A stretch of DNA of 64,000 nt, taken from assembly GCA_016699595.1 (NCBI GenBank), contig CP064982.1:276563-340562 (forward strand). Direction: 5' to 3'. This DNA comes from a bacterium (GTDB taxonomy: Bacteria > Patescibacteriota > Dojkabacteria > GCA-016699595). Position numbers and translations under genes: made by a program. Positions 6,779-55,477 of the stretch are shown here, in pieces (the first letter of the stretch is position 1; every line of letters starts with the position of its first letter). The notes under the pieces are model-generated. The model was given only the letters and a program-made list of their open reading frames with translations. It did not search any database and was not told the origin of the DNA.

Positions 6779-8494
6779 TCAATTTTGTACTTCAACCAAT
6801 CTAAATTCCGTAGAATATAAATAAGATCTTTGACTTTCAGGATAATTTTCAAATATATAATCATTTATTTCACTTTTGAACCTCCAACCTGCTACATATT
6901 TTTTAGATTTATCGCCAATCAACCCAACTGCCCATACCCTGTTTGATCCACCAGTAAAAATTTCTATTTGTTGTAAATTTCCAATGTCAATATTGCCTAA
7001 AGTTTGAAAAATTTCTCCAATTTTTGCTTTTGTAAAGGCAATTGTGTTCCAGCTAAAATTGTAAGTTTGATTTCTATATGCAAAGGCTGAGTCATTTACT
7101 GATCTCAAATAAGGATAAGGTGTACCAACAAGTCCTTCTTTTGTTGTGGCTACTGAAGCCCTGGTGAAAACAAGCTCATTGTTCTCACTTTGTCCTTGAT
7201 GACTTGCAGAATATACAGCAGTAACTAGACCTCCATTATATTTAATAACTTCTTTACTAGTTTCCTCTACTGCCCAAGCCTTTGCATTACCTCCAACATA
7301 GACTTGAAAGTCTGGACCATTTGATACTGTTGCACCAGAGCCTACTTTTTGTAAATGTGCAATCACATAAGTCCTAGCTGCAATTACTTGAGCTTTTATA
7401 GTTTCTTTAGGCCAGCAATTCCAAGAACCATTTGCTTGATTGGCATCACATGCTGTACTTGGAACCTCCCCAATTCCTGCAAGATAAGTTTCAACATCCA
7501 TTGTCCCATATCCAGGAACGGTAACTTCAAAATTTGCATTATATTTTTCAATGCTAATTCCAGTATAGTATTTTTGTAATATTTGATGTGCTGTAAAGCC
7601 TTCGATTCCAGCCCCATAAGCTCCCCATTGTGACATACCTACTCCATGACCATCATACAAATCACGACCCCTACCACTAAAATAAATTTCACCGTTCACA
7701 AAAGTCTGTACGTCTATAGGTATTGGTGCTGGTTGAGATAATTTCTCAGCCTCTTCTTTCTGAATCCTTTTTTGTTCTTCGGTAATATTTAAAATGTCTT
7801 TGTTCAAAGAGTTTATTTGAGATATCACCTGATATCTAGTTTGACTTTGTAGGTTTAATTGTGCTTTTATATTCGCTAGCTTTACAGAGATTTCATCTCT
7901 TTTTTTATTTAGATCAACTATAGTACTCATCAACTTAGATTTAATCTCTTCAGATGAGGAAACTAAGCTTTTGATCTTGTCAATCTCAATACTTGCTTGA
8001 TTTACATAGTTAATATCAGTATATATAAGATTTTTTGTGTATTGTGAATTTGGGCTTACTTTCAAATCAAAGTATAGGGATTCTTTGGCAGTTATTTTTG
8101 ATAGTTTATAAATTTTATTTATCTTGAAATTAACTTGATTCAATTTATCTCTAATTTCATTCTCCTTATAAATTATTTCTTGATTTAAGGCATCAATTTC
8201 ACTTATCTTTGCATTAACTAAACTCTGAAATTCATTTACTTGTTTATCAATTGCGTTTAGTTCACCTTGAGTTATATTTGTAGAAGTACTTATAGTATTG
8301 ATAGCGTTGGTCAATTCATCCAAACTTGTTGATAAACTATTGAGTTCACTTTGCTTTTCGATCAATTTTGTATCTAGGTCATTTACACTTTGTGCCATTA
8401 GACTGATGGAAAAGGCAAAAAAAAGCAAAAGGATCGAAAAGTTCAGAAAAAAATATTTATACAATGTTTTGTGTAATGGGTAGTGATTTGTCAC
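6779..8494 (-). CDS. SpoIID/LytB-domain cell-wall protein with an N-terminal signal/TM segment and a long coiled coil.
   Basis: 'DLYDGHGVGMSQWGAYGAG' matches the SpoIID/LytB signature GHGVGMSQ(Y/W)GA. The N-terminal 300 aa are coiled-coil-like. The first 38 nt overlap the upstream ATPase gene. Confidence 0.75.
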   Translation of the reverse strand: MTNHYPLHKTLYKYFFLNFSILLLFFAFSISLMAQSVNDLDTKLIEKQSELNSLSTSLDELTNAINTISTSTNITQGELNAIDKQVNEFQSLVNAKISEIDALNQEIIYKENEIRDKLNQVNFKINKIYKLSKITAKESLYFDLKVSPNSQYTKNLIYTDINYVNQASIEIDKIKSLVSSSEEIKSKLMSTIVDLNKKRDEISVKLANIKAQLNLQSQTRYQVISQINSLNKDILNITEEQKRIQKEEAEKLSQPAPIPIDVQTFVNGEIYFSGRGRDLYDGHGVGMSQWGAYGAGIEGFTAHQILQKYYTGISIEKYNANFEVTVPGYGTMDVETYLAGIGEVPSTACDANQANGSWNCWPKETIKAQVIAARTYVIAHLQKVGSGATVSNGPDFQVYVGGNAKAWAVEETSKEVIKYNGGLVTAVYSASHQGQSENNELVFTRASVATTKEGLVGTPYPYLRSVNDSAFAYRNQTYNFSWNTIAFTKAKIGEIFQTLGNIDIGNLQQIEIFTGGSNRVWAVGLIGDKSKKYVAGWRFKSEINDYIFENYPESQRSYLYSTEFRLVEVQN

Positions 8495-11743: not shown

Positions 11744-14263
11744 TTAAATATAACTTGGTATTTCAAACTTCACTTTGTATAGTTTATTTGTATCTAGTAT
11801 ATACAAATAGTCATCAATAAATGTGATACTAATTATATTGCCAAATTCAGTTCCCTTATCGTTAAACTTCAAAGAATACAAATATTCAAGTTTATTTTGA
11901 TCCAACTCATTATCTTTGCCCATCAATACAACTCTTTTATTTTTATTATCTATAAATATTATTCTGCTATCATCTAAAACAAATTTGCCAAAAGTGTCAA
12001 TGGGTAAAACCATATTGGTCGGCATATTTATAGTTACTTCCTTGCCTCCAAAATACTTTTTGACTCCTTGTGAGGTTAGCACCCAAACATTACCGTCAAT
12101 TTGTAAATCCAATCCCTGCTTAAAAATTTCTTGTTCGTCCCTAACTTCCAGTTTTCCGTATGCATTTACAGTTTTCAAAGATCTTCTTATTTGTCCAGTT
12201 GACCTTGATAATGTATAAAGGTATTCGTTACTTCCTACATCATAACTTTTCATTGAAGTTATATCTCCTACTACTTCATAAGAAAGTGAATCAATTTTTT
12301 CAATTGTCAAAGATGCAGATAGTCTGTACATTCCTAATGATGTATAAATTAGCAAATTATTATCTAAATCCTTACTAACTAATAATATGTCATTTAGTTT
12401 TGGCTCCAAAATTTGTTTGAATCCTATGTTTGCAAGATTACTTTGGTACAAATACCCTTTAGAATCAGCTACAAATATATTTCCATTTACTACTTCCAAG
12501 CCAATTGGAGATATGTTTTGGAAATTTGATTTTAAATCTTGCAATACATAGGAAGAATTGATAATTGAATTTTTTTCGATTTTATTCTTTGTCTGTGATA
12601 TCAAAGATTTCAAATTTGATAATTGAGTATTTATCTCGTTTCTTTTAACTGAATCAGTCAATGTGTTTTTTGTAGTAGCATTTTCGACATTTTTTAAAGC
12701 TTGAGTTAGTAAATCATTTGATCTACTTGCATTAAGAGATGCTTGAGAATTAGCATTTTTTTGATAATCTTGTGCAAGTTTAATTAAATTTGCTATATCG
12801 TTATATAAATCCTGTTGCTGTTTCTTCTCCTTATTGCTTTGAATAATTAAATTAGTTACGAAAATAACTAAAATTATCAAAATAACAATTGCAAGTAACT
12901 TTTGTTTGGATATATTTTTAATTAAAAATCCTCGTTTGTTCAATTCATCAGTATCGTTGGCTCCTAGATCATGGTTAGGTTTCTTAAATTTATTTTTGAA
13001 TCTATAAGAAACATCATTAGAGACTATATGTTTTTTTTCACCTGGATTTAAGTTTTTAATTTTGTCAGACATTTGTGTTTTTATATTTTTAAACATAAGC
13101 TGTAAAGATTGCGACATCGAAATGACAAGTTTATTTAAATGAGTGAATTGCTTTTTCAATTCTTCACTTTGATTCACGTCTGAATGTAAATTTTCCATTG
13201 TGGGAAATTTCTTACCCTTAGAAATATTTGATATATCAAAATTTTTCATCTCCCTAATTATTCTATTATTTTTTGAAGATTCTCTGTTTTTATAATTAAT
13301 TGAAAATATTTCTTCTGCAAACTCTGGTGTAACTTTTCTATCCGCATTTGGAAAATTCTTTGCGATATATTCATTACTGTGATTTTTGAAGAACAATCCC
13401 TTTTCAACATTCTTTTCTTTCTTCATTTCCTTTGAGGTATCTAAATTTGTTGCAAAGCCTTCTTTAGTGTTAAATTTCAATAAATCACTGTCACTATCGG
13501 AAATAGGACTATTTGCTGCAAATATAAAACCTGAAGATGAATCAGTGCCCAAATGATCACTTTTATGATTGATTGTAGGATTTACATTTACACGAGGAGG
13601 TATCAATTTTGGTTTTGTTGCAAACTTTAGTGCAAAAATTCCTAAGCCAACTTCATTTTTCAGTGGAGTCATATACAAACTTTCAAAATTCATTGTGCGT
13701 AAACAATTATCAAACTTAACACCAAGAATCTTCTGCTTAGTTTCATTTTCATAAGTTATTATTGTATCAGTAGGAGTAAGAATAACGGAAAAAGTCTTGA
13801 TCTCGGAATTTAGATTATCCTTGAAATATGAGTTCATATGAAAAATTGTTCCCTCTCTTTCAATATCTGTATATATCTCACCGATTTTTGCAAAATAAGC
13901 AATATTATCCTTTATCGAAATAAGTATACAATTTAAATCAATTTTTTGATCAAGCTCAACCTTATTTGTCTTAACTAACTTCAATAATTCACTTTTCAAA
14001 TTCATCAAAGTAATTTCAAGTGATTCATAAACTTTTCTGCCATCATTATCATAAAAATCTTTCAATATGAAATTTTTTAAAATATCTGCACTCTTGCTAG
14101 AATCAAAAAAATTCTCACATGAAATATTTATCAAACCAAATAATCTGCCCTTTGCAGGACTTTCTATGTAATTTTCTGCGTGACTAAAGACCAAACTACA
14201 TGCATCTTTCTCGTTCGTCTTAGAAATAAATGATGAAATTTTGATTGGATCATATAAGTTCAT
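11744..14263 (-). CDS. Large membrane protein: an N-terminal PP2C-like (apparently degenerate) domain, one TM helix, then an extracytoplasmic coiled coil plus a beta-propeller-like C-terminal domain.
   Basis: N-terminal region aligns by eye to PP2C motifs but with the metal-binding Asp residues replaced ('LFGLINISCE' in place of LFxVxDGxGG, and 'AKIGEIY' in place of ANVGDSR). TM helix 'LLAIVILIILVIFVTNLII'. C-terminal repeats such as 'NGNIFVADSKGYLYQ'. The architecture resembles PstP-type phosphatases. Domain calls are inference. Confidence 0.45.
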   Translation of the reverse strand: MNLYDPIKISSFISKTNEKDACSLVFSHAENYIESPAKGRLFGLINISCENFFDSSKSADILKNFILKDFYDNDGRKVYESLEITLMNLKSELLKLVKTNKVELDQKIDLNCILISIKDNIAYFAKIGEIYTDIEREGTIFHMNSYFKDNLNSEIKTFSVILTPTDTIITYENETKQKILGVKFDNCLRTMNFESLYMTPLKNEVGLGIFALKFATKPKLIPPRVNVNPTINHKSDHLGTDSSSGFIFAANSPISDSDSDLLKFNTKEGFATNLDTSKEMKKEKNVEKGLFFKNHSNEYIAKNFPNADRKVTPEFAEEIFSINYKNRESSKNNRIIREMKNFDISNISKGKKFPTMENLHSDVNQSEELKKQFTHLNKLVISMSQSLQLMFKNIKTQMSDKIKNLNPGEKKHIVSNDVSYRFKNKFKKPNHDLGANDTDELNKRGFLIKNISKQKLLAIVILIILVIFVTNLIIQSNKEKKQQQDLYNDIANLIKLAQDYQKNANSQASLNASRSNDLLTQALKNVENATTKNTLTDSVKRNEINTQLSNLKSLISQTKNKIEKNSIINSSYVLQDLKSNFQNISPIGLEVVNGNIFVADSKGYLYQSNLANIGFKQILEPKLNDILLVSKDLDNNLLIYTSLGMYRLSASLTIEKIDSLSYEVVGDITSMKSYDVGSNEYLYTLSRSTGQIRRSLKTVNAYGKLEVRDEQEIFKQGLDLQIDGNVWVLTSQGVKKYFGGKEVTINMPTNMVLPIDTFGKFVLDDSRIIFIDNKNKRVVLMGKDNELDQNKLEYLYSLKFNDKGTEFGNIISITFIDDYLYILDTNKLYKVKFEIPSYI

Positions 14264-14639: not shown

Positions 14640-15335
14640 TTACTTAAATGGATTGTTCAGAATTCCCAATTTGTCTAAAGGAAAAATCCTAAAGAATACT
14701 TTTCCTTTCAATGATTTTCTTAATACAAAACCAATGTCTGAATACCTTGAATCTCTACTATTTCCTCGATTATCTCCCATAACAAAATAAGAATTGGGAG
14801 GTACAGTTGATTCCTTACCTTCTATCAATGTTGAAGTATTCGGTAAGTATGTTTTGTCTTTGTTGTTTACTGTTTTTGAACTAACTCCAATAATTTCATT
14901 TCGAAAAGTACCATCAGCTAGATAATTTTCAATCACTTTATCTCCATTTACATACAACAATCCATCTTGAATCATCACTTTATCTCCTGGAAGAGCAACT
15001 ATTCTTTTAATTAAATCCTCTTCTTGAGTAGTACTTGACAAGTGAAAGGTGATAATGTCGCCGCGTTCGTAGTCGCCAAATACTTTGTATAAAGGTGAAT
15101 TTGCTCCACCAAATATTTGGACCAGCTTATTTGTAAGAAGTATATCGTGATCTTGAAGTGTTTCTCGCATAGATTCTCCCTTTACTTCGTTTGGAGTTAT
15201 TATAAATAAATATAATATAACAACAATAGCCAAAGCTATAACAATTGTTTGAAGAAAGTTTATAAATCCAGAACCTGCTACTGGTACATCAAGAGGATCA
15301 GTTAAAAATGGATTTTTTGTTTCAAATAGTGACAT
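14640..15335 (-). CDS. lepB: Signal peptidase I.
   Basis: N-terminal TM, catalytic Ser box 'GESMRETL' and 'GDNRGNSRDSR' (SPase I box E). Confidence 0.9.
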   Translation of the reverse strand: MSLFETKNPFLTDPLDVPVAGSGFINFLQTIVIALAIVVILYLFIITPNEVKGESMRETLQDHDILLTNKLVQIFGGANSPLYKVFGDYERGDIITFHLSSTTQEEDLIKRIVALPGDKVMIQDGLLYVNGDKVIENYLADGTFRNEIIGVSSKTVNNKDKTYLPNTSTLIEGKESTVPPNSYFVMGDNRGNSRDSRYSDIGFVLRKSLKGKVFFRIFPLDKLGILNNPFK

Positions 15336-17076: not shown

Positions 17077-17811
17077 TTATATAATTCTCGCAGTTATTAC
17101 AATCCTTTGTTTATCAGATCCAATAGGTGTACAAGTGACCAACTTTATAGATTGGAAGCCTTCATTTTTGACAGCTGACCAATCAGTTTTCTCTACTATT
17201 CTTGTATCAATGACCTGATATTTGTATATTTGACCCTTCCAGCTAATTTCAATGCTTTCTCCTACATGAACTTTGTCTAAATTATAAAATGTTTCTGTTT
17301 TTGGAGGCATATGATAATACCTATGACCATATATAACAGTAGTACCAATTACTTCAGGTGTAAACCCATTTGGATAAACCCAGAAGCCCTTTGTCATTGC
17401 AGCTTCACCCTCATTCATCGATCCTTCAACAAGTCCACCTTTTATCTTCGGATTACTTATCATCAAAGAATTTGATTGAAGATTGGATACTTCTTGAATT
17501 AGTTTAGTTTGTTCATCATTTGGAATACTATCATCAAAAGTAATTTCACTTGCATTTACATTCTCCAGAAATGGAGAACTATCTTTGAAGTTAGCAATGT
17601 TTATTGTACCTGGGAGTTCAATTTGATTTTCCAATATCAAAGGATTTGCAAGTATATTCCCAGATAAAGTTTGATAGTTATAAATCACATATGTCATCAG
17701 AAACACAGATGAAAGTAAACTTATTACCTGCATCTGCATTCTGAAAACTTTTCTTATTCTTGCTTTTCTTCTTTGATAATTAATACCTTTTAGTAAATTC
17801 ATATCAAACAA
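17077..17811 (-). CDS. Sortase-family transpeptidase.
   Basis: N-terminal membrane anchor, a catalytic His in 'VIYGHRYY', and the active-site Cys in 'IKLVTCTP' (TLxTC motif). Confidence 0.8.
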   Translation of the reverse strand: MFDMNLLKGINYQRRKARIRKVFRMQMQVISLLSSVFLMTYVIYNYQTLSGNILANPLILENQIELPGTINIANFKDSSPFLENVNASEITFDDSIPNDEQTKLIQEVSNLQSNSLMISNPKIKGGLVEGSMNEGEAAMTKGFWVYPNGFTPEVIGTTVIYGHRYYHMPPKTETFYNLDKVHVGESIEISWKGQIYKYQVIDTRIVEKTDWSAVKNEGFQSIKLVTCTPIGSDKQRIVITARII

Positions 17812-17815
17812 TTTA

Positions 17816-20800
17816 TCAAGAGTATTTCTTCAAATTTGGCCACGCTACACCAAAAGCGACAATTATTGAGCTCAAAATTATTGCTATCAATATTGATTCA
17901 GGAATATTTTGTAAATTTAGTACACCTGAAGTTTTTGGCATTTCTTTTGGTGTTTCAGTAGTTCCCAAAACTTCTGGCTGTTTAATTTTGACAAATGCTT
18001 GAGCGATAGCTTCATTATTTGGACCAATTACTTTGGCATTATTTATAACATTCTCTGAAGACTTCAATGCATTTGTATAAACTGTGAATATTAGATATTG
18101 ACCATTTGTCAAACTACCTACTTGTTCTATGACATTCGTATTGCCAAAAGTGTAAATGTTCGCATTGGTTTCATTTATATTTACTACAAGAGGTGCAGTT
18201 TCAAATAAGACAGTTCCATTTGCATCTCTTTTTTGGACAAATACTGAACTAAAGCTTAGATATTGCTTATCAAAGCTATCAGTAAATCTCAAAGAGTTTA
18301 TTGGTTCACAATTTCCTGAACATAGATTTTTCGTAATAATTTCCCATTGAACCTTTTGTCCGATTTCGACTAAAGCTCCAGTTTTGTTAGTTTTTGTCAA
18401 ATTTATATATGGAGTATCTTTTGTAACAATAACTACATTCATACAAAGAGAGTTTGTAGTATCTGCAAATGTTCCAGTAATCGGACTTTGTATTCCCTCT
18501 ACTTGTCCTGATGCTTGTCCACCAAAGTTACAAGCTAAACCAGCAGGCGCAGATTCCTTTACTTTGAATACAACTATAATATTCTTTGTACCTAAGGGTT
18601 CTATATTACCTATATTATTGATTACGAAAGTTCCAATATTGGTTGATGTATTATTTGAATCATAACCAGGATTTGTACTTTCTAATGATAATCTTGTTGA
18701 ATCATAATTATCAACAATTCTTACATTTTGCACTAAAACTGTACCTAAGTTTCTTACACTAATATTGTATGTAATTGAGTTTGGATTATTTTGCAATACT
18801 GTCTTACTTATTGCAATATTAGTACTAACTACATCGATATTCCACCCGTCACAATTATCGTAGTTATCATAGTTATTGACTGTATTGATAGGGTTGGAAA
18901 CTACATCACAATTAATGTCTGTAGTATCAATTTCTCCACCTCCTGAGACACTAGCTACGTTTGAAATATTACCAATAAATCCTGTGTTTATGTTTGCAAC
19001 AACTGTAATTATGGAATTTTGATTCACTCCTAATGCTTGACTTCTTGTACATGTAATATCATTACCTACATTACTACAATTCCAGTTAGTTCCACTAGCA
19101 CTAACGAAAGTCAGTGTAGAAGGAAGATTTTCTGTAACTACTATTGGACTATTTGTTGCAACCTGACCTACATTCAGAACCTTAAGTTGGTAACTTACTT
19201 GTCCGCCTGTGGTGACATTTGTATCTGAAGTCTTTTGTATTATCAAATTTGGGTACTGAGCAACTGGAGTACTAGTAGTTGAGCTAGTTGCTGGTGTACT
19301 TGTTGGTGTTGAGCTTGAGACTGGGTTACTGCAACTAGCAGAACAATTTGCACTTGTTCCACCATTTGTTCCACTGCATGTCCATGAAACAGTTCCATTG
19401 GAGAACGTAGGATTTGCAGGATTTGCTGTCCCCTGTGCACATAGTGGTGTGAGAGTTCTGCTACATGATCCACTAGTTCCATTTGCACTTCCACATACTC
19501 CATTGACTGGAGTTGGTGGTTTCAAACAACTAGCAGAACAATTTGCACTTGTTCCACCATTTGTTCCACTGCATGTCCATGAAACAGTTCCTCCATTTTG
19601 TGGGTATGAAATTGTTTCACTACCAGCATTACCTGGGTTACATAGATCTCCTGTAGGTATACTAGTGCCACATGTCCCTGTTCCTCCATTTGCACTTCCA
19701 CATACTGCATTTATTGGAGTTTGCGTAATTGTCAGCGTCCAACCGTCACAATTATCTTGATTATTATCATTATTACTGTCATTATCACCTTCTAGGTCTG
19801 CATCGCATGCCCAGTCAGTAGTATCACCATCTGTTGTATCGGTTGAATCTATAATTCTTGCATGGTCAACAATAGTATGGTTTACTGGTGCATTATCATT
19901 GATCTTCACATATACCTTTACAACTGTATCCCATACATTTATTGAAGGTACATATTGTTTTGTCGTTGTACATACTACTCTATGATTTGGATTGTTGGGT
20001 GGATTTGGATCGTACTTTGTACATGTCCATCCAGTTCCTGCTACTAGTGATTGGTATGTATAGTATTCTCCTTGGACGGGTGCTTCTAGAACTGTAATTG
20101 TTCCATTTGTAGAAGCATTACCTATATTTGATATTTTCACTGTGTATTCAATTGTATCACCTGCTTTTGCTGAGCTTGCATTACCTTGCTTTTGTATTAT
20201 CAAGTTTGGCTTTGTAACAACTTGTGTACATGATTTGCCTGTTGTACACATAGCAGATACTGTCATTCCATCGGACGGTCTTGCTAGATTACAAGATACA
20301 CCTGAGTTGGTAACGTATCCACTAGGTTTATATTCGGTAACATCAATTATTCCCCAGTCTAGTTGAACAGATCCACATCTATCATATGGAGCTGTAGAGT
20401 TCATTGGATAATTTCTCCCGACTGTAATATTTTTTGTTTCTCCTGCTTGTAGTGTGATCTTTTGAACTGATTTATCGTTTTGGCCTGGATTTTGATCGCA
20501 TGAGAAGTATTGATTATCTTGATCATCCCAGTGACTACCGTATTGTGACATACAAGAGTATGTCATTGATTCATTTTGTGGCAGTTTACCGTATCTAACA
20601 TCTATTGTATAGCCAGTTGTATTTCTCAAAGACAAAGTTTGAGTTAGGGAATCATTACTGTTGTTTCTTGTTCCACATCTATATGCATCTTCTTTACTAT
20701 ATATCCCTCCAGATTGTGGGTCTCCGTAAAAACTACAGCCAGAATTACAATTATCTGATACTGATTCTATCTTCACTCCACATGTAATATTACTAGCAGG

Positions 20801-20962
20801 TGTAGGTATCTCTACTGCCCTCCCACTAAATGCTGAAGGTCGATCGGTAAATTTGTTTTGTATCTTTAAAACAGAAAGTCCTATGATAAATAGTGACAAA
20901 AAAATAACCGCAAAGATAAAAACAAAGCTTTTTGTTTTTAGTATTTTTTGAAAATTTCCCAT
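17816..20962 (-). CDS. Large Cys-rich cell-surface protein (1048 aa) with DUF11-type repeat domains, two tandem 65-aa Cys-rich modules, and a C-terminal sorting-signal-like anchor.
   Basis: Signal anchor at the N-terminus. DUF11-like segments ('NLIIQKQGNASSAKAGDTIEYTVKISNIGNAST', 'NLIIQKTSDTNVTTGGQVSYQLKVLNVGQ'). Duplicated module '…NGGTVSWTCSGTNGGTSANCSASC'. C-terminus reads '…EMPKTSGVLNLQNIPESILIAIILSSIIVAFGVAWPNLKKYS' (motif, hydrophobic helix, basic tail). Immediately upstream of the sortase gene. Confidence 0.7.
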   Translation of the reverse strand: MGNFQKILKTKSFVFIFAVIFLSLFIIGLSVLKIQNKFTDRPSAFSGRAVEIPTPASNITCGVKIESVSDNCNSGCSFYGDPQSGGIYSKEDAYRCGTRNNSNDSLTQTLSLRNTTGYTIDVRYGKLPQNESMTYSCMSQYGSHWDDQDNQYFSCDQNPGQNDKSVQKITLQAGETKNITVGRNYPMNSTAPYDRCGSVQLDWGIIDVTEYKPSGYVTNSGVSCNLARPSDGMTVSAMCTTGKSCTQVVTKPNLIIQKQGNASSAKAGDTIEYTVKISNIGNASTNGTITVLEAPVQGEYYTYQSLVAGTGWTCTKYDPNPPNNPNHRVVCTTTKQYVPSINVWDTVVKVYVKINDNAPVNHTIVDHARIIDSTDTTDGDTTDWACDADLEGDNDSNNDNNQDNCDGWTLTITQTPINAVCGSANGGTGTCGTSIPTGDLCNPGNAGSETISYPQNGGTVSWTCSGTNGGTSANCSASCLKPPTPVNGVCGSANGTSGSCSRTLTPLCAQGTANPANPTFSNGTVSWTCSGTNGGTSANCSASCSNPVSSSTPTSTPATSSTTSTPVAQYPNLIIQKTSDTNVTTGGQVSYQLKVLNVGQVATNSPIVVTENLPSTLTFVSASGTNWNCSNVGNDITCTRSQALGVNQNSIITVVANINTGFIGNISNVASVSGGGEIDTTDINCDVVSNPINTVNNYDNYDNCDGWNIDVVSTNIAISKTVLQNNPNSITYNISVRNLGTVLVQNVRIVDNYDSTRLSLESTNPGYDSNNTSTNIGTFVINNIGNIEPLGTKNIIVVFKVKESAPAGLACNFGGQASGQVEGIQSPITGTFADTTNSLCMNVVIVTKDTPYINLTKTNKTGALVEIGQKVQWEIITKNLCSGNCEPINSLRFTDSFDKQYLSFSSVFVQKRDANGTVLFETAPLVVNINETNANIYTFGNTNVIEQVGSLTNGQYLIFTVYTNALKSSENVINNAKVIGPNNEAIAQAFVKIKQPEVLGTTETPKEMPKTSGVLNLQNIPESILIAIILSSIIVAFGVAWPNLKKYS
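19333..19591. repeat. Perfect 64-bp direct repeat (copies at 19333-19396 and 19528-19591) spaced 195 bp apart and in frame, inside the surface-protein gene.
   Basis: Identical string 'aactagcagaacaatttgcacttgttccaccatttgttccactgcatgtccatgaaacagttcc' at both positions. Corresponds to the duplicated '…TVSWTCSGTNGGTSANCSASC' protein module. Locally GC-richer than the surroundings. Confidence 0.85.
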
Positions 20963-22022: not shown

Positions 22023-25000
22023 TTAAATGACATTTATGCTAATTGGTGAAGATGATAAAGTTCCTACGCTCGTAACATAGTTAACCAAAAAAATATAGTT
22101 TCCAGTTGATGTTGGAGTATAATTTATTTGAAATAACTTGTTTCCGATATCGGTCATACTAGCATATTGTATACCATTTACAAGTAAAATGACATTTGTA
22201 TAATCAGTTGAACCAGCATACTTAGCAGTAATTGCAAATGGAGTATTTACAGCTTTTGAACTTCCTGAAGCAGGAGAAGTTATCGTTAAAATTCCGTTTA
22301 AAGTTTGAGTTGGATTCACTATACTAATAGAAACTTCATTCATAGCAACACTACCTCCAACATCTGTAGCCTCTATTTTCAGCAAGTGTAATCCTGATGC
22401 AAAACTATTATTTATGTTTATATTGGTAACTAGCGAGTTTCCACTTGAAGTGGATATCAAACTATTATCTAGATATGCTTTCATACTAATGACATCACCT
22501 AATGCTCCGGTAGCACTCGCGTTCACAATCAACATTTCTCCAATATTTATTGACTGACTTTGTTGTGGAGAAGCTATAGTAATTATTGGCTTGAGATTCA
22601 AAGAAACATAATCAGTATCGCAATTTGTCAATTTTGCAGATGGAGATTGCTTTAACAACTTATCTATCTGGTCTTGCATTTCTGCTTTAGGCATTTTTAT
22701 ATAAACATTCAAATCTTCTTTTGCAAAATTGTATTGTATGTCAATATCTCTCGCCTTCATCTTTTGTGACTGATCGTTCAATTTCGCTTGTGCATCTGAA
22801 TAAGACGCAGGTTTATCTGTGCAGACCTGTATCTTAGTTATACTATCATCTACTGCTGGTAATTTATCAGCTAGAAACATAGATTTACTTGTCTTATCAC
22901 AGGTTGAACTAGCGGGGAGACCAGAGTAATTACAAACAGTAACTTCTGTAATTCCACTTGGTTTTTCCCAATCATCATTCTTTTTATATGTATCAGGATA
23001 ATTCGCAACAAGCTGTTTCATAAAATCATTATAAATAGGTAGTGATAGAGTCGCACCGTCTGATCGCAAATTTACAGCACTGTTATCGTTGTTACCTGAC
23101 CATACTCCAACACTAATGTGTTTTGAATATCCAACATACCAATTATCCAAACTATCATTAGTTGTGCCTGTCTTCCCAGATCTTATATATCCATTCAATT
23201 CTGGTATCCAAAACCTACTATAATACTTTGCAGGACCAGACTCTTTTATGACATCATTCATAAGATATGCAGCTCTAGAGTCAATGACCTGTTTTGCCAA
23301 CTTTTCTGGCTCGTACTTCCATAAAATATTTCCATTTTTATCTTCAATTCTAAGTATGCTTTGAACTGGATGAGAAATTCCTAAATTTCCTAAAGTGGCA
23401 TATGCATTTATATGTTCGATAGGTAAAATGTCATTTGCACCTAATATGGTAGTTGGAACTATTTCACCAACATCTTTGAAAGTAGTATAACCAAGCTTAT
23501 TGAACATATTAAATACTAATTCGTTCCCCATTATTTGCTGGGCAATAAAAGCTGGCCTGTTGTATGAAGCCCTAAGCTGATCTCTCAAAAAGTTTTTTGT
23601 AGATCCAGCTGAATACCCAACACCACCACCAAATGCATTTTGTGGTGTATAGTTACCTACTTTATAAGGAACATCAGGTATAAATGCCGAAGGATATAAA
23701 CTTCCGTTTTCAAATCCAGCAACTTCAGATATAGGTTTCATACTTGAACCTGGCTGTTGTAAAGAATTCATAATGTTCACCTGTCCGTCGAACTTACTAA
23801 TTCCTGTGTTTGCATTTTTGCCTTCACTCTCTAGGTTATAACCTTTTGATCCTACCATAGCCAGTACTTCACCAGTTCTTGAATCAATAGCTCCTAAAGA
23901 ACTATTATAAGCTCCATAATTTTTTTTGTTTGATTCTGCGCCATCGAAAACTGCCTTTTGTGCGATATTTTGGATATCTAGATCTATAGTCGTGAAAATA
24001 TTGTACCCTCGTTCATTTAGCATACTCATGGTCAGAGGTTTATCATCTATAAAAATAGCATTCTCATCAATTAATTGACCAATTGCATAATCTACAAAGT
24101 GAGGAGCATTTTTTTCTACAGTTGGAGTTACAAATGCAAGTTCTTCAGTTCTTGCAGATTGTATGTCTTGAATTGGGATGTTGATTCCATGGTCTTTCAA
24201 TAATTCTTGTTCTTGTTCAAATTCATTTAGGACAAATAGTTGCCTGCACTTGTAAGGGTTTGTTTCTATAACTGTTGATCCATCAAATGCAACGGTAACT
24301 TTGCCATTTTCATCTCTACTATATTGTCCTTCAGACAAACCTATTCCTGTACTATCTCCTTGCTTTTCTCTACAAACTATTTGTTTCGAATTGTATGGCG
24401 AATAAATCGTCCAATTCTGAGGGAGTCCTGCCAGAAATGTACTTTCTCCAAGTGTCAACTGATCGAGCTCCTTGTTAAAGTAATATCTAGCAGCAGTTTT
24501 CACTCCATAAGATGTTGGCGAAAAGTCCACTTCATTTAGGTAAAATGTAAGTATAGTGTCTTTTGAGTATAGTTGATTCAATCTCAACGCAAGAATCATT
24601 TCTTTAATTTTCCTTGTCTTTGTGTCGTAAGGATAATCTTTGAAGACAGTATTTTTAAGTATTTGTTGAGTTATAGTTGAACCTCCACAATTTCCCTTGC
24701 GTAAATATGTCACATAAAAACATCTTGCAGTAGCTACGATATCAACTCCAGGATCTTCATAATATCTTTTGTTTTCCGCCAAAAGGAAAGACCATTTGAC
24801 CCTATCAGGAACCTCGGAAATATCTTGCAACAAATCTCTATCAACATCACCAATTTGTTTGTAAAGAAACTTACCATTGCGATCATAAAATATAGAAGGT
24901 TCAGTTTGTCCTCTTTCAAACGGCTTGGTAGGATCAGGCAAATCTTCAGTGAACTTTGCTACCAAAGCTATACCACCAACAAATCCAATAATTGTAAATA

Positions 25001-25208
25001 TAAATCCTCCCCAAAGAAATACAAGTAAAACACTTTTCAACTTCTTTTTAAGTGCAGTTTTCTTTCTTGTTTTTGAGTAAGTATTTAGTGATGCCAATCC
25101 TTGTGGAGTGGTACTTTTTCTTTTTTTCCTTGATCCAATGGTTTTCTTTGTCTGATTCATGGAAGTAAATATTTTGAAAAAATAGAGAATTATATATATA
25201 TTGCCCAA
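22023..25208 (-). CDS. Class A penicillin-binding protein (GT51 transglycosylase plus transpeptidase) with a C-terminal extension of about 300 aa. The true start is probably the internal Met (MNQTKK…) near 25160.
   Basis: GT51 motif 'GGSTITQQILKN', transpeptidase motifs 'SSMKP' (SxxK) and 'SGKTGTT' (KTG), and a TM helix 'LLVFLWGGFIFTIIGFVGGIALVA'. Confidence 0.9.
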   Translation of the reverse strand: MGNIYIILYFFKIFTSMNQTKKTIGSRKKRKSTTPQGLASLNTYSKTRKKTALKKKLKSVLLVFLWGGFIFTIIGFVGGIALVAKFTEDLPDPTKPFERGQTEPSIFYDRNGKFLYKQIGDVDRDLLQDISEVPDRVKWSFLLAENKRYYEDPGVDIVATARCFYVTYLRKGNCGGSTITQQILKNTVFKDYPYDTKTRKIKEMILALRLNQLYSKDTILTFYLNEVDFSPTSYGVKTAARYYFNKELDQLTLGESTFLAGLPQNWTIYSPYNSKQIVCREKQGDSTGIGLSEGQYSRDENGKVTVAFDGSTVIETNPYKCRQLFVLNEFEQEQELLKDHGINIPIQDIQSARTEELAFVTPTVEKNAPHFVDYAIGQLIDENAIFIDDKPLTMSMLNERGYNIFTTIDLDIQNIAQKAVFDGAESNKKNYGAYNSSLGAIDSRTGEVLAMVGSKGYNLESEGKNANTGISKFDGQVNIMNSLQQPGSSMKPISEVAGFENGSLYPSAFIPDVPYKVGNYTPQNAFGGGVGYSAGSTKNFLRDQLRASYNRPAFIAQQIMGNELVFNMFNKLGYTTFKDVGEIVPTTILGANDILPIEHINAYATLGNLGISHPVQSILRIEDKNGNILWKYEPEKLAKQVIDSRAAYLMNDVIKESGPAKYYSRFWIPELNGYIRSGKTGTTNDSLDNWYVGYSKHISVGVWSGNNDNSAVNLRSDGATLSLPIYNDFMKQLVANYPDTYKKNDDWEKPSGITEVTVCNYSGLPASSTCDKTSKSMFLADKLPAVDDSITKIQVCTDKPASYSDAQAKLNDQSQKMKARDIDIQYNFAKEDLNVYIKMPKAEMQDQIDKLLKQSPSAKLTNCDTDYVSLNLKPIITIASPQQSQSINIGEMLIVNASATGALGDVISMKAYLDNSLISTSSGNSLVTNININNSFASGLHLLKIEATDVGGSVAMNEVSISIVNPTQTLNGILTITSPASGSSKAVNTPFAITAKYAGSTDYTNVILLVNGIQYASMTDIGNKLFQINYTPTSTGNYIFLVNYVTSVGTLSSSPISINVI

Positions 25209-34244: not shown

Positions 34245-35642
34245 TTAATCTTTAATTAATTTTCTAACTACTTCTTGGTCACTGTATGGATATTCTGTAG
34301 TTCCAAAACAAAGTGATTGCTCGTGACCTTTTCCACAGATAACAATTATATCTTGGGGATTTGCAATTTCCATCGCTTTTGCAATTCCTAGTTCTCTACT
34401 TTTGACTTCTGGTTCATCAAATCTAAATACCTCAGGTTTAAATGCTTCCTCAACTTTTCTAATTCCAATTTCAATCTGATTATTGATCTCTTCTAAATCT
34501 TCCGTTCTAGGATCCTCAGGAACAAGGATTATTGTATCAGCAAGTTTTGCTGCAACTTCTCCCATTATAGGTCTTTTTGATGTGTCTCGTAAACCTGCAC
34601 AACCAAAAATAACAATTAATTTACTGTCTTTACTCTTTAAGTTATTTACAGCAGTTAAAGCATTTTCCAACGCATTTGGGGTATGTGCGAAATCAACTAT
34701 AATCATTGGTAAATCGCTATGTTTCCAACTTTCTAAATAGGACTTATTTGTCATAACTTCCATTCTTCCAGGAAGTGAAGTGAAAGTTGACAGAGCAGTA
34801 GCAATATTGTCTAAATTAATTTTCAAATTTTCACAAACTGAAATTGCTGCAAGTGCATTGTAAACATTATAGTTTCCGAGCATTGGAACTTGAAATAGTT
34901 TATCTAAAATACCATCTTTGTGATTCATTGAAAATAAATCTATGTTTAATTTTTCATCAAATTCTGCCGAATACCAAGTTTCGTTATCTTTTCTATATAA
35001 ATTAAATTGAATTCCTTCTAAGTTAGTTTGAACATTTTTGGCTTTATTTATACCTTTGTCAATTCCATAACTAACTAAATCCATCTTTCTACTTAATCTA
35101 ATCATTTGAAGAATTCGTTTTTGAATAAACTCATAACTTCTATCATCAGCATTGGCAACTACAACTCCATTACCTTTCAAATTATCAATCAATTTCAATT
35201 TTGCCTCTAAATAATTTTCATAATTTTCATGATAATCAAAATGATCTTGAGTTATATTTGTATAAACAGCATAATCAAATTTTATTCCCCAATATCTAAA
35301 TTGATCAAGTGCGTGAGAAGTTGTCTCAAGAACTACATATTCAATTTTTTTATCAACCATCATTTTCAGATACTTCTGTATATCTTTAGGATTAGGTGAA
35401 GTTACATGAAAACCAGTATCAAGATCATCATCTCCAATTTTTGCAGAAATTGTAGAAACCATCCCAGATTTAAAATTATTATGTTTCAAAATGTGGTAAA
35501 TCATATTTGAAGTCGTAGTTTTTCCGTCAGTTCCAGTTACTCCTATTATTTTCAGCTTTTTGCTTGGAAATCTATAAATGATATTCCAAAAAATTGCTTG
35601 TGGTAAGTGTAAAAAATAGTTTTTGATAGTTTGTAGTTTCAT
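34245..35642 (-). CDS. murE: Mur ligase family, MurE-like (UDP-MurNAc-tripeptide synthetase).
   Basis: ATP-binding '[16 protein letters not shown]' and '[13 protein letters not shown]' (MurE motif DYAHTPDAL). The third amino-acid specificity cannot be determined. Confidence 0.7.
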
Positions 35643-35683
35643 TTGTTCTATAAATTAAAAAGACTTTCTAGATGAATTAATAT

Positions 35684-38468: not shown

Positions 38469-40685
38469 ATGACAAGCATGCTTGATCTACGATTACTAAA
38501 TGAAAAACAAAAAGATGCTGTAGAAAGTTTGACGGGTCCGGTTTTAGTTTTAGCGGGAGCTGGTTCTGGAAAAACAAAAGCTTTGACATATAGAATTGCA
38601 AATATTTTGGAACAGAATTTAGCTACAGAACAAGAAATTTTGGCAGTTACATTCACAAATAAAGCTGCTACCGAGATGAAGGAAAGAGTCATGAAACTTT
38701 TGATAAATTCAAGCACTTCATTTCAACACTCAGAAGAACACAACAGCACAAAAGCCATTACTTTCATGGGAACTTTTCATTCGATTTGTGTGAAAATATT
38801 GAGAACTGATGGAAAGAAAATCGGAACATTGCCAAACTTTGTCATTTATGATGAAGATGATGCAGTAGATGCAATCAAGTCAACTTACGAAAAACTTGGG
38901 CTAAATATCAAAGAACTTAACCCTAAAGCTGTAAAAGCTACAATTAGTTCTGCTAAAAACGAACTAATTGACACTGTTCAATTTCAAAATTTGGCTCAAG
39001 GATATTATCAAAATAATGTTGCGAAAGTATATATAGAATATCAAAAAGTCTTGAAAGAATCAAGCGCGCTGGATTTTGATGATCTGATAATGAAAGTTAT
39101 CAATTTGTTTGAAGGTTCAGATGAAACTTTGCAAAAGTACCAAAGTAAATTTAAATATATCTTAGTTGATGAGTATCAAGATACAAATCACGCTCAATAC
39201 AAACTTGTGAAATTACTTGCAGAGAAGTACAAAAATATTTGCGTTGTTGGTGATGAAGATCAATCAATTTATAAATTTCGAGGTTCAGATATCAGGAATA
39301 TTCTTAATTTTGAAAGAGACTTTCCTGGTTGCAAGATTATCAAGCTTGAACAAAATTATAGATCAACTGAAGTTATTTTGAACTCTGCAAATTCAATTAT
39401 CAAAAAAAACTCTCAAAGGCTAGAGAAAAGTATGTGGACTCAAGTTTCTGGAGGTGAACTTATAACTCAACATCAAGCTGAAGATGAAAAGGCGGAATCA
39501 AAGTATATTGCAGACAAAATTGAAGAAATTATTGATAATAAAGCTGACCAAAGTATTGTTTTAAGTATTGGCGTGCTTTATAGATCAAACGCTCAATCTA
39601 GAAACATTGAAGAAGCTTTGATCCAAAAAGGGATTCCTTATCGACTTGTTGGGGGAATAAGGTTTTATGAAAGAAAGGAAATAAAAGATGTTATTGCTTA
39701 TTTGCGAGTTTTGATCAATCCAAAAGACACATTATCTTTGATGCGCATAATAAATACTCCTCGTCGTGAAGTTGGGAAGAAAGTGTTGAGTGAGCTTGAA
39801 ACTTTGTCAAGAGAGCATAATCTTAGTATTGGAGAGCTTTTGCTTGATGAATATAGTAATATTCAAGTTGAATCCCATGCTATAGGTTCGGTAATAAAGT
39901 TATTTAGAAATTTGAAAAGCAAGCTAAATGAAATTGATTTGCCTAATTTTATAGATTACTTGATAACTGAAACAGGTTACAAAAGTTTTTTGGATGACGG
40001 AACAGAAGAAGGAAAAGCCAGGTTAGAAAATATTTTTGAACTAAAGTCAGCTTGTGAAAAGTTTGTAAACAATGAAATTAATTTTGAAGAAAATCTTTCT
40101 AAGTTTTTGGAACAAATTGCACTTTTGGAAAGTGATGAAATGGCAAAGGAGAAGGAAAATAGATTGAATTATTTAGAAGAGAAGTTTAAGGTCAAAGTGA
40201 ATTTGATGACCATACATGCATCAAAGGGACTAGAGTTTGATTTTGTTTTTTTGCCAGGATTTGAAGAGAATTTATTTCCACATTCAAGAAGTTTGCTTGA
40301 AGTAGAAGAACTCGAAGAAGAACGCAGACTTGCGTATGTTGCTGTAACAAGAGCTAGATCAAAGCTTTTTATACTTCATGCATATACCAGAAGATACTTT
40401 GGAGCCAAACAAACAAACCCACTGAGTCGTTTTGCTGAAGATATACCAGAAGTTTACAAAGAAGTTGAAGAGTTTGATGGAGCTTATAACAATTTTAGTT
40501 ACTCAAAAAGTAGTAAATTTGATTTTGATGATTTTGAATTTGAAAGTGAATCTAAATTTGAAAAAACTTATCCGAGCTTAGGTGAAGAATTGAAAAACAG
40601 AAAGAAAAGTTACTCTTCAAAGTATAATAATTATACAGCTGGCAAAAAATATGAGGACATGGACAATATAGTTACTGATTGGTAG
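38469..40685 (+). CDS. pcrA: UvrD/PcrA-family ATP-dependent DNA helicase.
   Basis: 'LVLAGAGSGKTKALTYRIA' (motif I), 'ILVDEYQDTNHAQY' (motif II), and 'VAVTRARSKLFIL' (motif VI). Confidence 0.9.
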   Translation: MTSMLDLRLLNEKQKDAVESLTGPVLVLAGAGSGKTKALTYRIANILEQNLATEQEILAVTFTNKAATEMKERVMKLLINSSTSFQHSEEHNSTKAITFMGTFHSICVKILRTDGKKIGTLPNFVIYDEDDAVDAIKSTYEKLGLNIKELNPKAVKATISSAKNELIDTVQFQNLAQGYYQNNVAKVYIEYQKVLKESSALDFDDLIMKVINLFEGSDETLQKYQSKFKYILVDEYQDTNHAQYKLVKLLAEKYKNICVVGDEDQSIYKFRGSDIRNILNFERDFPGCKIIKLEQNYRSTEVILNSANSIIKKNSQRLEKSMWTQVSGGELITQHQAEDEKAESKYIADKIEEIIDNKADQSIVLSIGVLYRSNAQSRNIEEALIQKGIPYRLVGGIRFYERKEIKDVIAYLRVLINPKDTLSLMRIINTPRREVGKKVLSELETLSREHNLSIGELLLDEYSNIQVESHAIGSVIKLFRNLKSKLNEIDLPNFIDYLITETGYKSFLDDGTEEGKARLENIFELKSACEKFVNNEINFEENLSKFLEQIALLESDEMAKEKENRLNYLEEKFKVKVNLMTIHASKGLEFDFVFLPGFEENLFPHSRSLLEVEELEEERRLAYVAVTRARSKLFILHAYTRRYFGAKQTNPLSRFAEDIPEVYKEVEEFDGAYNNFSYSKSSKFDFDDFEFESESKFEKTYPSLGEELKNRKKSYSSKYNNYTAGKKYEDMDNIVTDW

Positions 40686-41970
40686 ACAATATCTCGTCAA
40701 CAATTTTTTCTGCAGCATCTTCTTTTGCGTACAAACTTGTTTTGGAAATTGTATCTTCAAAACCAACATTATTCAGATTTTTTCCCAATCTTTTATATTC
40801 CAAAACATCATATATTCTATTATTTAAGATTTCTGGCGTTAAGTCTTTCTGATAAATCACTTTGGCAAGTCCAAGCTCTTCCAAAAACTCAGCTTGTCGT
40901 TCCTGTTCATTTCCTGAAGTTCCGGGAATTGGTATCAAAATGCAATGTTTGTTCATAAACATATATTCAAAGCTAGAATTCGCTCCACTTCTTGAAATGA
41001 CGAGATCTGCTAATGAAAGTACTTCAGCTAAATCATATTCATTGATAAATTCTCTAGGTAAGTAAAATTGAGATAGTTGATCAGGTAGATTTACTTTCAG
41101 TGCAATAGCCTTTTCATAATCCTGCGTCAAGCTACTTGATCCAGTTTGATGGATAATTGTGAAATCATTCAAAATAACTGGCAATAGTTTGAAAATATTC
41201 TCGTTTATAATGTGCGAACCTTGATTACCTCCCAATATCAGTATAATCTTCGTTTCATTGGAATTTTTTGTTGCATCAAATCTAAAATTATAATGATTCA
41301 AAAGCAAATCAGCTATAGGCTTTTCGCTAAACTTATGCCAATTATAATTGACTACACCACCATTTTCCTGAATCTCCTCTCTTTTCAAGACGAAAGCTTG
41401 TCTTATAGGATTACCAGTAAATACTAGTTTTTTTTCTGCAAAAAATCTTTTTGAGCTCTTCCAACTAATAAATACCTTATGAGCAAAAAAAGATATTATC
41501 CTATTTGATAATCCAGGTTTAATGACTTGCTCATGAGTATAAATTGTGATTTTTTGGAATTTTCCAGCAATAACAATTGGCAATGCTAGATAGCCTCCAA
41601 ACGATAAAATAACTTTCGGACTTTCTTCTTTTACAATTTTTCTTGCTTGAAAAAATCCTTTTGGGATGGATAACAGTGATTTCAGAGCTGGGCGAAATGA
41701 GCCTTTGAAACTTCTGAAAACTTTTCCACTTTGAAGCTCAATGAAAGGGATACTTTTTGAACTAACAATCCTATACTCAGCAGAAAGATTCTGATCTCCA
41801 GTTTGTGAATACTTATGTCCAACCCAACAAATATTTCTGTATCCCCTACTTTGTAATTCATCTATCACTGCAAATGCTGGTGTCATATGCCCTCCAGTTA
41901 TCATTATTTTGTCTGTTTTGTCTAGTTTAAATTTATTCATACTTTTGTGAAAACAAGATTCCAAGTCCAA
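40672..41970 (-). CDS. murG: MurG-like GT28 glycosyltransferase (UDP-GlcNAc:lipid I transferase), longer than typical MurG.
   Basis: N-terminal 'ITGGHMTPAFAVIDEL' (compare GGTGGHVFPALAVA) and a C-terminal UDP-binding region '…GANSSFEYMF…IPIPGTSGNEQERQAEFLEELGLA'. Overlaps ftsW by 38 nt, as in dcw clusters. Confidence 0.75.
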   Translation of the reverse strand: MDLESCFHKSMNKFKLDKTDKIMITGGHMTPAFAVIDELQSRGYRNICWVGHKYSQTGDQNLSAEYRIVSSKSIPFIELQSGKVFRSFKGSFRPALKSLLSIPKGFFQARKIVKEESPKVILSFGGYLALPIVIAGKFQKITIYTHEQVIKPGLSNRIISFFAHKVFISWKSSKRFFAEKKLVFTGNPIRQAFVLKREEIQENGGVVNYNWHKFSEKPIADLLLNHYNFRFDATKNSNETKIILILGGNQGSHIINENIFKLLPVILNDFTIIHQTGSSSLTQDYEKAIALKVNLPDQLSQFYLPREFINEYDLAEVLSLADLVISRSGANSSFEYMFMNKHCILIPIPGTSGNEQERQAEFLEELGLAKVIYQKDLTPEILNNRIYDVLEYKRLGKNLNNVGFEDTISKTSLYAKEDAAEKIVDEILSTNQ

Positions 41971-43312
41971 TCATTAGTGCCAAAAGTGAACTCCCTCCGT
42001 AACTTATAAATGGTAAGGTAAGACCTTTGAAAGGTATCAGTGATACATTGGCAGCAATATTTATAAATGACTGAAAGCCAAACCAGGATATTATACCAAT
42101 TACTAGAAGTCTGTGTTGTAGAAGTTTATGCTCATTAGAAAAATTTATACCCTTCAATACAATGAACAAAATAAACAAAACTAATGCTAAAGAACCAACA
42201 AAACCCAATTCTTCTGCAATCACTGCAAAAATAGTATCTGTATAACTAGTTTGATCTACTAGGTATGCATATTTTTGCTTTGATTCGCCTAAACCAAGCC
42301 CTGAAATTCCACCAGAACCTATAGCTATAAGAACTTGTTGAATTTGATAACCAGAACTTAGTGCCAACTCTTTTGACAATCTTCCCGTGGTTAAAACTTC
42401 AGTATATACTTCAAATCTACCTACTCTATAGCTTTCAAAACTAATCATTGCTACTACAGAAATTGCACCCAAAGTCAAAATCAAGAAACTCGAAAAAAAG
42501 TTTAGCTTTGAATTTGCGGAAAAAACAAAAAGTACTAAAGCAATAAATCCAATTACTATAATGCTACCTAAATCCTTTTGAAATACTATAGGTACTAAAG
42601 TAATGGTTATAAGAATACAAAATGGCAAAAATTTTTTCAAAAGAAAACTTTTGGTATATTCTATGAAATCATTGTTTTTAATCTCTTTCTCAACTTTTGG
42701 CAACCAAAATGCTAGATACAATATCAAAATAGGTTTGACTATCTCAGAAAACTGAATGGTAAATCCGCCAATACTTATCCATCGCCTCGCTCCATTCACT
42801 ACTACACCGATTGATGGAACTAATGTCAAAAATAGACCTAGTAGAGAAAGACCTAAGAGAAGTAAACTAAATTTGCTCAAAACTTCACTTCTAAATCTGG
42901 ATATAAGTAATGTCAAAAAGCTTCCAATACCCAAAAAAAGCAAATGGCGAAAGAGTACTGCAAATTGATTATAGTAAGGAGCTCTAGAAGATACAACAGC
43001 AGAAGCATCAAATACAAAAAGCACTCCGAAAACAATGAGTCCAATAAATCCAAATAACAAGCCTTTATCTATGCTTACAAGTACACCTTTTTTGATTAGT
43101 TCCCTGACTTCAACATTTTCTTTACATTTCCTCTTATCGTTCTGTGTTTTTGATTGGGCGTTTTGATGATAAGTCTGTTTCGCTTTGATGTTTCTCTTAT
43201 CAGGTGATAGATTGTTTTTCACTTTCTTCACTTCAGAAGCTTTATATTTATTACCTAACTCCTTACTCCCCCAATATGATATATTACTTTTTGAAACATT
43301 ATTATTCAACAC
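41933..43312 (-). CDS. ftsW: SEDS-family peptidoglycan polymerase FtsW/RodA with a Lys-rich N-terminal extension of about 90 aa.
   Basis: Ten-TM pattern and the SEDS signature '…VDQTSYTDTIFAVIAEELGFVGS…'. Confidence 0.85.
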   Translation of the reverse strand: MLNNNVSKSNISYWGSKELGNKYKASEVKKVKNNLSPDKRNIKAKQTYHQNAQSKTQNDKRKCKENVEVRELIKKGVLVSIDKGLLFGFIGLIVFGVLFVFDASAVVSSRAPYYNQFAVLFRHLLFLGIGSFLTLLISRFRSEVLSKFSLLLLGLSLLGLFLTLVPSIGVVVNGARRWISIGGFTIQFSEIVKPILILYLAFWLPKVEKEIKNNDFIEYTKSFLLKKFLPFCILITITLVPIVFQKDLGSIIVIGFIALVLFVFSANSKLNFFSSFLILTLGAISVVAMISFESYRVGRFEVYTEVLTTGRLSKELALSSGYQIQQVLIAIGSGGISGLGLGESKQKYAYLVDQTSYTDTIFAVIAEELGFVGSLALVLFILFIVLKGINFSNEHKLLQHRLLVIGIISWFGFQSFINIAANVSLIPFKGLTLPFISYGGSSLLALMIGLGILFSQKYE

Positions 43313-43417
43313 TAAATTAATTTTAATAGTTACAACTATTTATTTCAAGAATATATAGAACTTGACGCTTTTGAATATAATTTGAAAGTGTTATAATTTT
43401 TATATATTTGAAAATGC

Positions 43418-55428: not shown

Positions 55429-55477
55429 GTTTTCTTTTCTTATTGCCTAATCTTTAACTATCATATACAATAAATAT

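Follow-up and report, generated by a model that had tools for sequence, protein, structure and literature searches.

The window analysed here, a stretch of 64,000 nucleotides (nt) from the genome of a patescibacterium of the Dojkabacteria (assembly GCA_016699595.1, contig CP064982.1, forward-strand positions 276,563 to 340,562), carries on its minus strand a gene for a predicted sortase substrate of 1048 amino acids (aa; 17816-20962) and, directly downstream of it, a gene for a sortase (17077-17811). We read the two genes as a unit for the production of a fibrillar surface protein that is anchored by the sortase, in a probably symbiotic bacterium with a small genome and a wall of peptidoglycan, and we give this reading a probability of roughly three in four. 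It is carried by the domain identities of the two proteins, the catalytic residues of the enzyme, the adjacency of the genes, the conservation of the sorting signal and the presence of wall-synthesis genes in the same window. A dedicated sortase with a wall-anchored surface protein on a CLIPPER-domain stalk is a known kind of system in an ordinary arrangement, and the general understanding of sortase systems is unchanged by it. An initial annotation of this DNA had placed both open reading frames (ORFs) correctly and had proposed that the upstream protein is a sortase substrate with a non-canonical signal. The orthologs, which keep the motif with its Pro and Thr invariant, and two gene fusions appear to bear out that proposal.

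A TTG start gives the smaller protein (QQR93815.1) a length of 244 aa; NCBI, which uses the ATG at 17802 instead and so arrives at 241 aa, labels it 'class E sortase'. That it is a sortase, as first annotated, is well supported, since it passes the cut-offs of both Pfam Sortase (PF04203; 63.7 bits against 26.6, E 1.8e-17) and TIGR01076 (57.2 bits against 39.35) and conserves the His-Cys-Arg triad. The catalytic residues, placed by alignment, are His163 (17323-17325), Cys227 (17131-17133) and Arg236 (17104-17106). G162-H163-R164, LVT-C227-TP and R236 are invariant in an alignment of the sortase with two homologs (A2), and the triad also lines up with sortases in the PDB. Hydropathy analysis of the chain gives one N-terminal membrane helix at about aa 25-47 and no C-terminal hydrophobic segment, the chain ending 8 residues past Arg236. 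The gap from the surface-protein gene to the sortase gene is 4 nt if the TTG start is used and 13 nt if the ATG is used, and no terminator-like site was found between them; the two genes are probably transcribed as one.

The surface protein is identical to QQR93816.1, labelled 'hypothetical protein IPJ91_01505' in NCBI, and by hydropathy has hydrophobic segments at its N- and C-termini only. Its predicted sorting signal (17819-17941) reads ...TETPKE-MPKTSG(1008-1013)-VLNLQNIPES-ILIAIILSSIIVAFGVAW-PNLKKYS and has the expected three-part layout, with the motif MPKTSG (17924-17941), then after a 10-aa spacer an 18-residue helix (aa 1024-1041; 17840-17893), and KK at the extreme C-terminus in the tail PNLKKYS. 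The available signal models miss MPKTSG, and conservation in relatives was therefore used as the test. BLASTP aligned EMPKTSG of the window protein onto SLPDTAG of its syntenic ortholog. When four signals were aligned (MPKTSG, LPDTAG, LPNTD and LPWTAG), the Pro and Thr of the motif proved invariant and the Pro in the spacer was conserved, and the motif keeps its position in orthologs with 23-35% identity. The chance of finding [LM]P.T[AGS] within 40 residues of this proteome is about 0.0013. Since Pro and Thr are conserved across these relatives, a lack of any conserved motif across homologs is not what is found, and it is an MPKTSG-type signal, more than a membrane helix alone, that appears to have been conserved.

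Word-indexed homolog searches yielded three relatives of the sortase and seven module proteins (see below), and a scan of metagenomes with the sortase alignment gave five further loci; a word-indexed search with the C-terminal alignment (A4) returned no match, the genome's own proteins included. The closest sortase homolog (41% identity) was found on four contigs in the same gene order as in the window, namely L21, L27, CLIPPER protein, sortase and AI-2E transporter. The CLIPPER protein of this ortholog pair (L001:4349-7948) is 1199 aa long and aligns with aa 704-1037 of the window protein, that is with its last 330 residues, at 31% identity (E 4e-33). At another locus (L083) the C-terminus of the protein upstream of the sortase runs from LPNTD through a spacer and a helix to KAKKNN. 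In two cases substrate and enzyme are a single protein. The 889-aa ORF at L085:3802-6468 runs from SdrD_B/SpaA-like and DUF11/DUF7507 domains through ELPWTAG, a spacer, a helix, ARKYK and a second helix into a sortase domain, and the ORF at L086:1-504 continues in frame from KELPHTAGG into a sortase. These fusions give independent support, in the manner of a Rosetta stone, for the pairing of substrate and sortase, and a protein made up of both sortase and target motif could be self-processing. The L085 fusion retains the two membrane helices; from the one at L086 they seem to be absent. A further 1375-aa protein with SpaA-like repeats (L005:3858-7985) precedes a more distant sortase relative (P0003) and ends in LVNTGE, a helix and KRSL, with Val in the usual position of the Pro.

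Two Pfam families are matched by the large protein above their cut-offs, DUF11/CLIPPER (PF01345; 45.8 bits against 24.6, E 8.9e-12) and DUF7507/CLIPPER_2 (PF24346; 38.4 bits against 27, E 1.3e-9). DUF11, lately renamed CLIPPER, is a CnaA-like stalk domain of fibrillar adhesins with an internal isopeptide bond, which some DUF11 domains lack (PMC12617251). The chain begins with an export signal or signal-anchor (aa 1-33; 20864-20962), made up of a K-rich n-region and a 20-aa hydrophobic core, where hydropathy windows 6-18 score at least 1.7. Then comes a region of 217 aa with 10 Cys and without significant family match (aa 34-250; 20213-20863), in which an Fn3-like match is sub-threshold (E 0.005) and which BLASTP did not align with the N-terminal region of the ortholog; it is possibly the distal or ligand-binding part. 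The first stalk domain, of CLIPPER type and thus CnaA-like (aa 251-415; 19718-20212), has its DUF7507 and TIGR01451 matches at aa 252-298. The sole PDB sequence match of the protein is the CLIPPER crystal structure 9IFR (E 1e-4), and K258 aligns with the presumed isopeptide Lys of that structure, assuming a two-residue offset of the crystallised chain. Two copies of a Cys-rich module with six Cys each (aa 416-479, 19526-19717; aa 485-544, 19331-19510) and a Ser/Thr/Pro-rich linker (aa 545-568; 19259-19330) lie between this domain and the second, a CLIPPER/DUF11 domain (aa 569-714; 18821-19258) with its best Pfam DUF11 stretch at aa 573-681. Two more immunoglobulin-like (Ig-like) stalk domains (aa 715-845 and 846-1000; 17963-18820) are kept in the ortholog and have weak matches, both sub-threshold, to DUF7619 at aa 723-777 and to RrgB_K2N_iso_D2 in the last domain (E 9e-4). 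The stalk consists, in all, of two CLIPPER-type domains above the Pfam cut-offs and two weaker ones. The initial description of the protein as giant and Cys-rich is overstated, as Cys makes up 34 of the 1048 residues (3.2%).

From these features we infer cleavage, wall linkage and adhesion as follows. The 1048-aa protein would be exported via its N-terminal signal and retained in the membrane by the C-terminal helix and the KK tail. The membrane-bound sortase, using Cys227, His163 and Arg236, would cut after Thr1011, between MPKT and SG, and transfer the protein to a peptidoglycan precursor, which would result in its covalent linkage to the wall. The mature protein would then be a stalk of four CLIPPER/CnaA-like Ig domains, maybe cross-linked internally by isopeptide bonds, and two small beta modules, stabilised by disulfides, would lie between the first and the second of these domains. 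Its unrelated Cys-containing N-terminal region would be held distally and could bind a partner cell or surface, and the domain architecture suggests a role as an adhesin or in host attachment. Patescibacteria live attached to other microbes, and to our knowledge their attachment molecules are mostly unknown beyond type IV pili. The sortase, its neighbouring substrate and the signal consensus give this group a concrete candidate for an attachment protein that is linked covalently to the wall.

A number of observations weigh against this reading. PF00746 and TIGR01167 find no match at E <= 10 in the C-terminal 202 aa of the large protein, and MPKTSG departs from LPXTG by Met at position 1 and Ser at position 5, where Leu and Gly or Ala are usual, and by the 10-aa spacer; at L083 position 5 of the signal is Asp. 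With 20 aa, the hydrophobic segment at the N-terminus is long and may be an uncleaved anchor, the isopeptide mapping covers the Lys of the Lys-Asn bond and its catalytic Asp, none of the curated classes fits the sortase, so that its specificity is not readable from homology, and the processing of the signal is a prediction from sequence. The silence of the signal models and the Met and Ser residues would suit a C-terminal helix that is a membrane anchor only, with an MPKTSG-like motif that is not processed and a sortase that serves other proteins. The same explanation is favoured by two other paralogs, in which a tail of 18-21 aa with the conserved end F-x-E-x-V-E-[KR]-x-N follows the helix, which is unusual for a segment that is to be discarded, and one of which has LPNSA and so no Thr. 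We nevertheless consider a bare anchor unlikely. Distant orthologs keep the Pro and Thr unchanged in this position, a motif of this kind is very improbable by chance, and a substrate lies directly upstream of a sortase, or is fused to it, in the window, L001, L083, L085 and L086.

If the enzyme were class C-like, it could join copies of the large protein head-to-tail via Lys residues, and the two genes would make a minimal sortase-assembled pilus. The class C model (NF033745) is the best class-specific hidden Markov model for the window sortase (52.2 bits) and reaches 90.7 bits in its relatives, the class C sortase 8t28 is its best PDB sequence match, and the weak RrgB_K2N match in the last stalk domain is to an isopeptide-domain family. 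However, all of these class C scores are far under the cut-off of 160, the sortase stops soon after its catalytic Arg without a C-terminal membrane helix, no DP[FWY] lid motif was found by inspection of its sequence, and the YPK pilin motif is absent from the substrate. A single candidate subunit gene adjoins that of the sortase, and its long multidomain product is unlike shaft pilins, which tend to be shorter; we regard such a pilus as quite improbable. A link to the Pam pilus of the Candidate Phyla Radiation (CPR) was also considered and was rejected, that pilus being assembled by donor-strand exchange with no sortase (bioRxiv 10.64898/2026.03.03.709456). It is more improbable still that the sortase hands the protein to an acceptor that is not peptidoglycan but, for example, a lipid, a component of a surface layer or a secondary wall polymer, in the way of the exosortases and archaeosortases of other lineages. 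The position of this sortase clade outside all curated classes, the poorly known envelope chemistry of CPR bacteria and the long Pro-containing spacer, which is atypical, would agree with such an acceptor. The enzyme is however a true sortase-fold protein (PF04203) and not an exosortase, peptidoglycan-synthesis genes and an LCP-family protein are encoded in the window, and characterised sortases all use peptidoglycan precursors or pilin lysines (PMC8225981).

We return to the neighbouring sortase and to the class of the enzyme. The best PDB sequence matches of the sortase are class C and D enzymes (E 1e-10 to 1e-6). Below class C, the class-specific models score 47.6 bits against a cut-off of 140 (NF058671, SrtD specific for LPxTATN), 44.4 against 165 (class D, NF033746), 28.4 against 160 (class E, NF033747) and 25.8 against 166 (class F, NF033748), and the class A and B models give no match to the window sortase. 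Six relatives of the sortase are likewise below all class-specific cut-offs. Membership in class C, D, E or F was rejected on these curated cut-offs, and the initial assignment as LPXTA-type (class D) is supported by none of the class-specific models. Because the class E score is far under its cut-off, the label 'class E' that NCBI gives to QQR93815.1 is unsupported, and our analysis corrects it. The substrates carry [LM]PxT[AS]G, which is nearest to LPXTA and LPXTG and is unlike the LAXTG motif of class E (class motifs as in PMC8225981).

The system shares with the CLIPPER/CnaA/CnaB fibrillar adhesins (PMC12617251) an export signal, a distal non-repeat region, an Ig stalk, a sorting signal and an adjoining dedicated sortase, and the stalk-domain types CLIPPER, CLIPPER_2 and DUF7619 are common to both. 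Unlike in those adhesins, the host genome is here one of 0.76 Mb and 31% GC, probably of the CPR, the stalk is broken by two copies of an uncurated module with four to six Cys, and the signal is MPKTSG with a 10-aa spacer, which standard LPXTG models miss. It resembles the class D sortases of Bacillus and Clostridium, which recognise LPXTA, in the LPxTAG of orthologous substrates, the one N-terminal anchor and the absence of a lid, and LPNTATTN at the window end resembles the LPxTATN of the SrtD pair NF058671/NF058670. In contrast to members of these groups, the window sortase and signal are under the model cut-offs. The characterised function of class D is in sporulation (PMC8225981). The single N-terminal membrane anchor is also like that of the housekeeping class E enzymes of Actinobacteria, but Pro and not Ala stands at position 2 of the substrates here. 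A sortase family of the CPR (fam000526) has been found to occur in over half of the CPR genomes and in almost all Microgenomates (PMC6744442); that record is one of presence and absence only, whereas here a cognate substrate, a signal consensus and a conserved gene order are defined.

The window ends within a second gene of the module-bearing kind, of which the 3' end is present (63659-64000, minus strand) and which is open to the window edge. The fragment reads ...NGGSVIWTCNGLNGGSNSVACSASC...TTLPNTATTN-FIKYLGLVGMFVMLGSSLYIL-RNRATR-TLTFEEIVEKNN up to the stop codon. Its module (63869-64000) is incomplete because the upstream part lies beyond the edge of the window. A linker rich in Thr leads from there to LPNTA (63788-63802), a helix (63716-63769) and RNRATR, which is followed by a tail of 12 aa. 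LPNTA, the hydrophobic helix and RNRATR, which make up a three-part sorting layout, read as first annotated. The fragment comes close to the signal cut-offs of PF00746 (Gram_pos_anchor; 19.9 against 20) and TIGR01167 (15.5 against 15.9), and scores 12.9 bits against 32 (E 0.1) with the LPxTATN signal model NF058670.

A third gene of the same genome, IPJ91_03210 (P0162, QQR93432.1; 727 aa), was found by cluster look-up. Its residues 1-577 are 100% identical to aa 138-714 of the large protein (18821-20551 in the window), and the rest of the chain comprises another module, a linker rich in Ser, LPNSA, a helix and a long tail; as annotated, it has no N-terminal signal. The identity over 577 residues points to a recent segmental duplication or gene conversion, with an assembly artefact as another possible origin. 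The C-terminus of IPJ91_03210 is homologous to that of the window-end fragment. The initial view of this fragment as a paralog holds for the module, and for the C-terminal signal by comparison with the third gene; the rest of the gene is beyond the window. Together these genes appear to form a small modular surface-protein family, whose members have recently exchanged large segments and carry two kinds of C-terminal signal. The LPNTA/LPNSA-type C-termini make candidate sortase substrates, against which the conserved tail and the Ser in LPNSA weigh.

The Cys module is about 55-60 aa long, and a profile of it scores 53.5 bits on copy 1 and 58.2 on copy 2 of the large protein, and 27.7 on the window-end copy, with no other match within the window. 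As the initial annotation had stated, it is real, shared with the window-end fragment and without a named-domain match: no credible match was found in Pfam or NCBIfam, where all hits were far below cut-off, and none among PDB sequences. The view of the module as distinctive does not survive a wider search. Against 1.84 billion cluster representatives a profile of 11 units matched 5177 proteins at E <= 1e-3 (2385 at E <= 1e-10), so that at least 5177 protein clusters, from many phyla, carry the module, and a very common extracellular repeat is thereby flagged as lacking a curated family. The units often form long tandem arrays, with as many as 45 matched stretches in one protein, and eight of ten module proteins had no Pfam family at all, the other two being matched outside the repeat. 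Among species-representative genomes, the module turned up in those of Acidobacteriota, of several classes of proteobacteria, of Nitrospira and Bdellovibrionales and of many CPR lineages, and also in that of a Woesearchaeote. It is accordingly a common extracellular repeat that is not peculiar to this genome.

Exactly four Cys are present in 1043 of 1079 full module units, and the units in the window have six. An AlphaFold2 model of the module, from a 64-sequence alignment, is beta-rich with moderate confidence (pLDDT 74), and the module is possibly a small Ig-like domain. A constant pairing of the module with sortase signals was rejected, as such signals were found in none of the 150 top module proteins and in none of 86 module ORFs elsewhere; the combination seen in this genome is unusual. 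The two module copies share a 65-nt perfect direct repeat at their 3' ends (19332-19396 and 19527-19591, 195 nt apart), which indicates a recent tandem duplication or a conversion between modules. The GC content, which is 31% for the window, climbs to 0.41-0.44 across the modules, and this is probably explained by their content of Gly, Cys, Ala, Ser and Thr rather than by a foreign origin of the gene.

A broader proposal, which as a whole we put forward tentatively and with odds well short of even, would be that the sortase and its relatives form a separate CPR class, each member dedicated to a neighbouring CLIPPER protein with [LM]PxT[AS]G and a long Pro-containing spacer and some being fused and self-processing, that the surface protein is a host-attachment device, and that the four-Cys module is a new, unnamed Ig-like family with thousands of members.

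Other module proteins show different architectures. Several module-rich proteins (L036:6275-10945, L036:4232-6166, L029:1-975, P0100, P0103 and P0043) share a motif at the extreme C-terminus, either ...(A)LPKW(H/Q)E..P(Y/F) or ...LPGWIEGNP immediately before the stop, with no hydrophobic helix after it, and at least three of the proteins with such LPKW/LPGW ends are from Paceibacterota genomes. In another protein (P0144), five modules come after the N-terminal methylation motif of type IV pilins (PF07963), an architecture which implies that the module is used in pilin-like proteins too.

The remaining genes of the window include several with functions at the cell wall. A class A penicillin-binding protein (22023-25208, minus strand) is encoded together with MurG (40672-41970), FtsW/RodA (41933-43339), a Mur ligase (34245-35654), MurA (55451-56794), MurB (59645-60709), an LCP-family protein (48959-50611), a SpoIID-like protein (6779-8494) and signal peptidase I (14640-15335), a set in keeping with an envelope of one membrane and peptidoglycan. 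Indirect evidence, namely this gene content, the low GC and the small contig (761,814 bp), from which both protein records in NCBI derive, points to the Patescibacteria/CPR, a group in which sortases are frequent (PMC6744442). The class A penicillin-binding protein, whose gene is just upstream of L21-L27 and the surface-protein gene, has a C-terminal extension of about 300 aa with at least one Big_7 domain. An ORF of 839 aa with no Pfam match and one central hydrophobic segment (11744-14263, minus strand) shares a gene string with signal peptidase I, the AI-2E transporter and the sortase.

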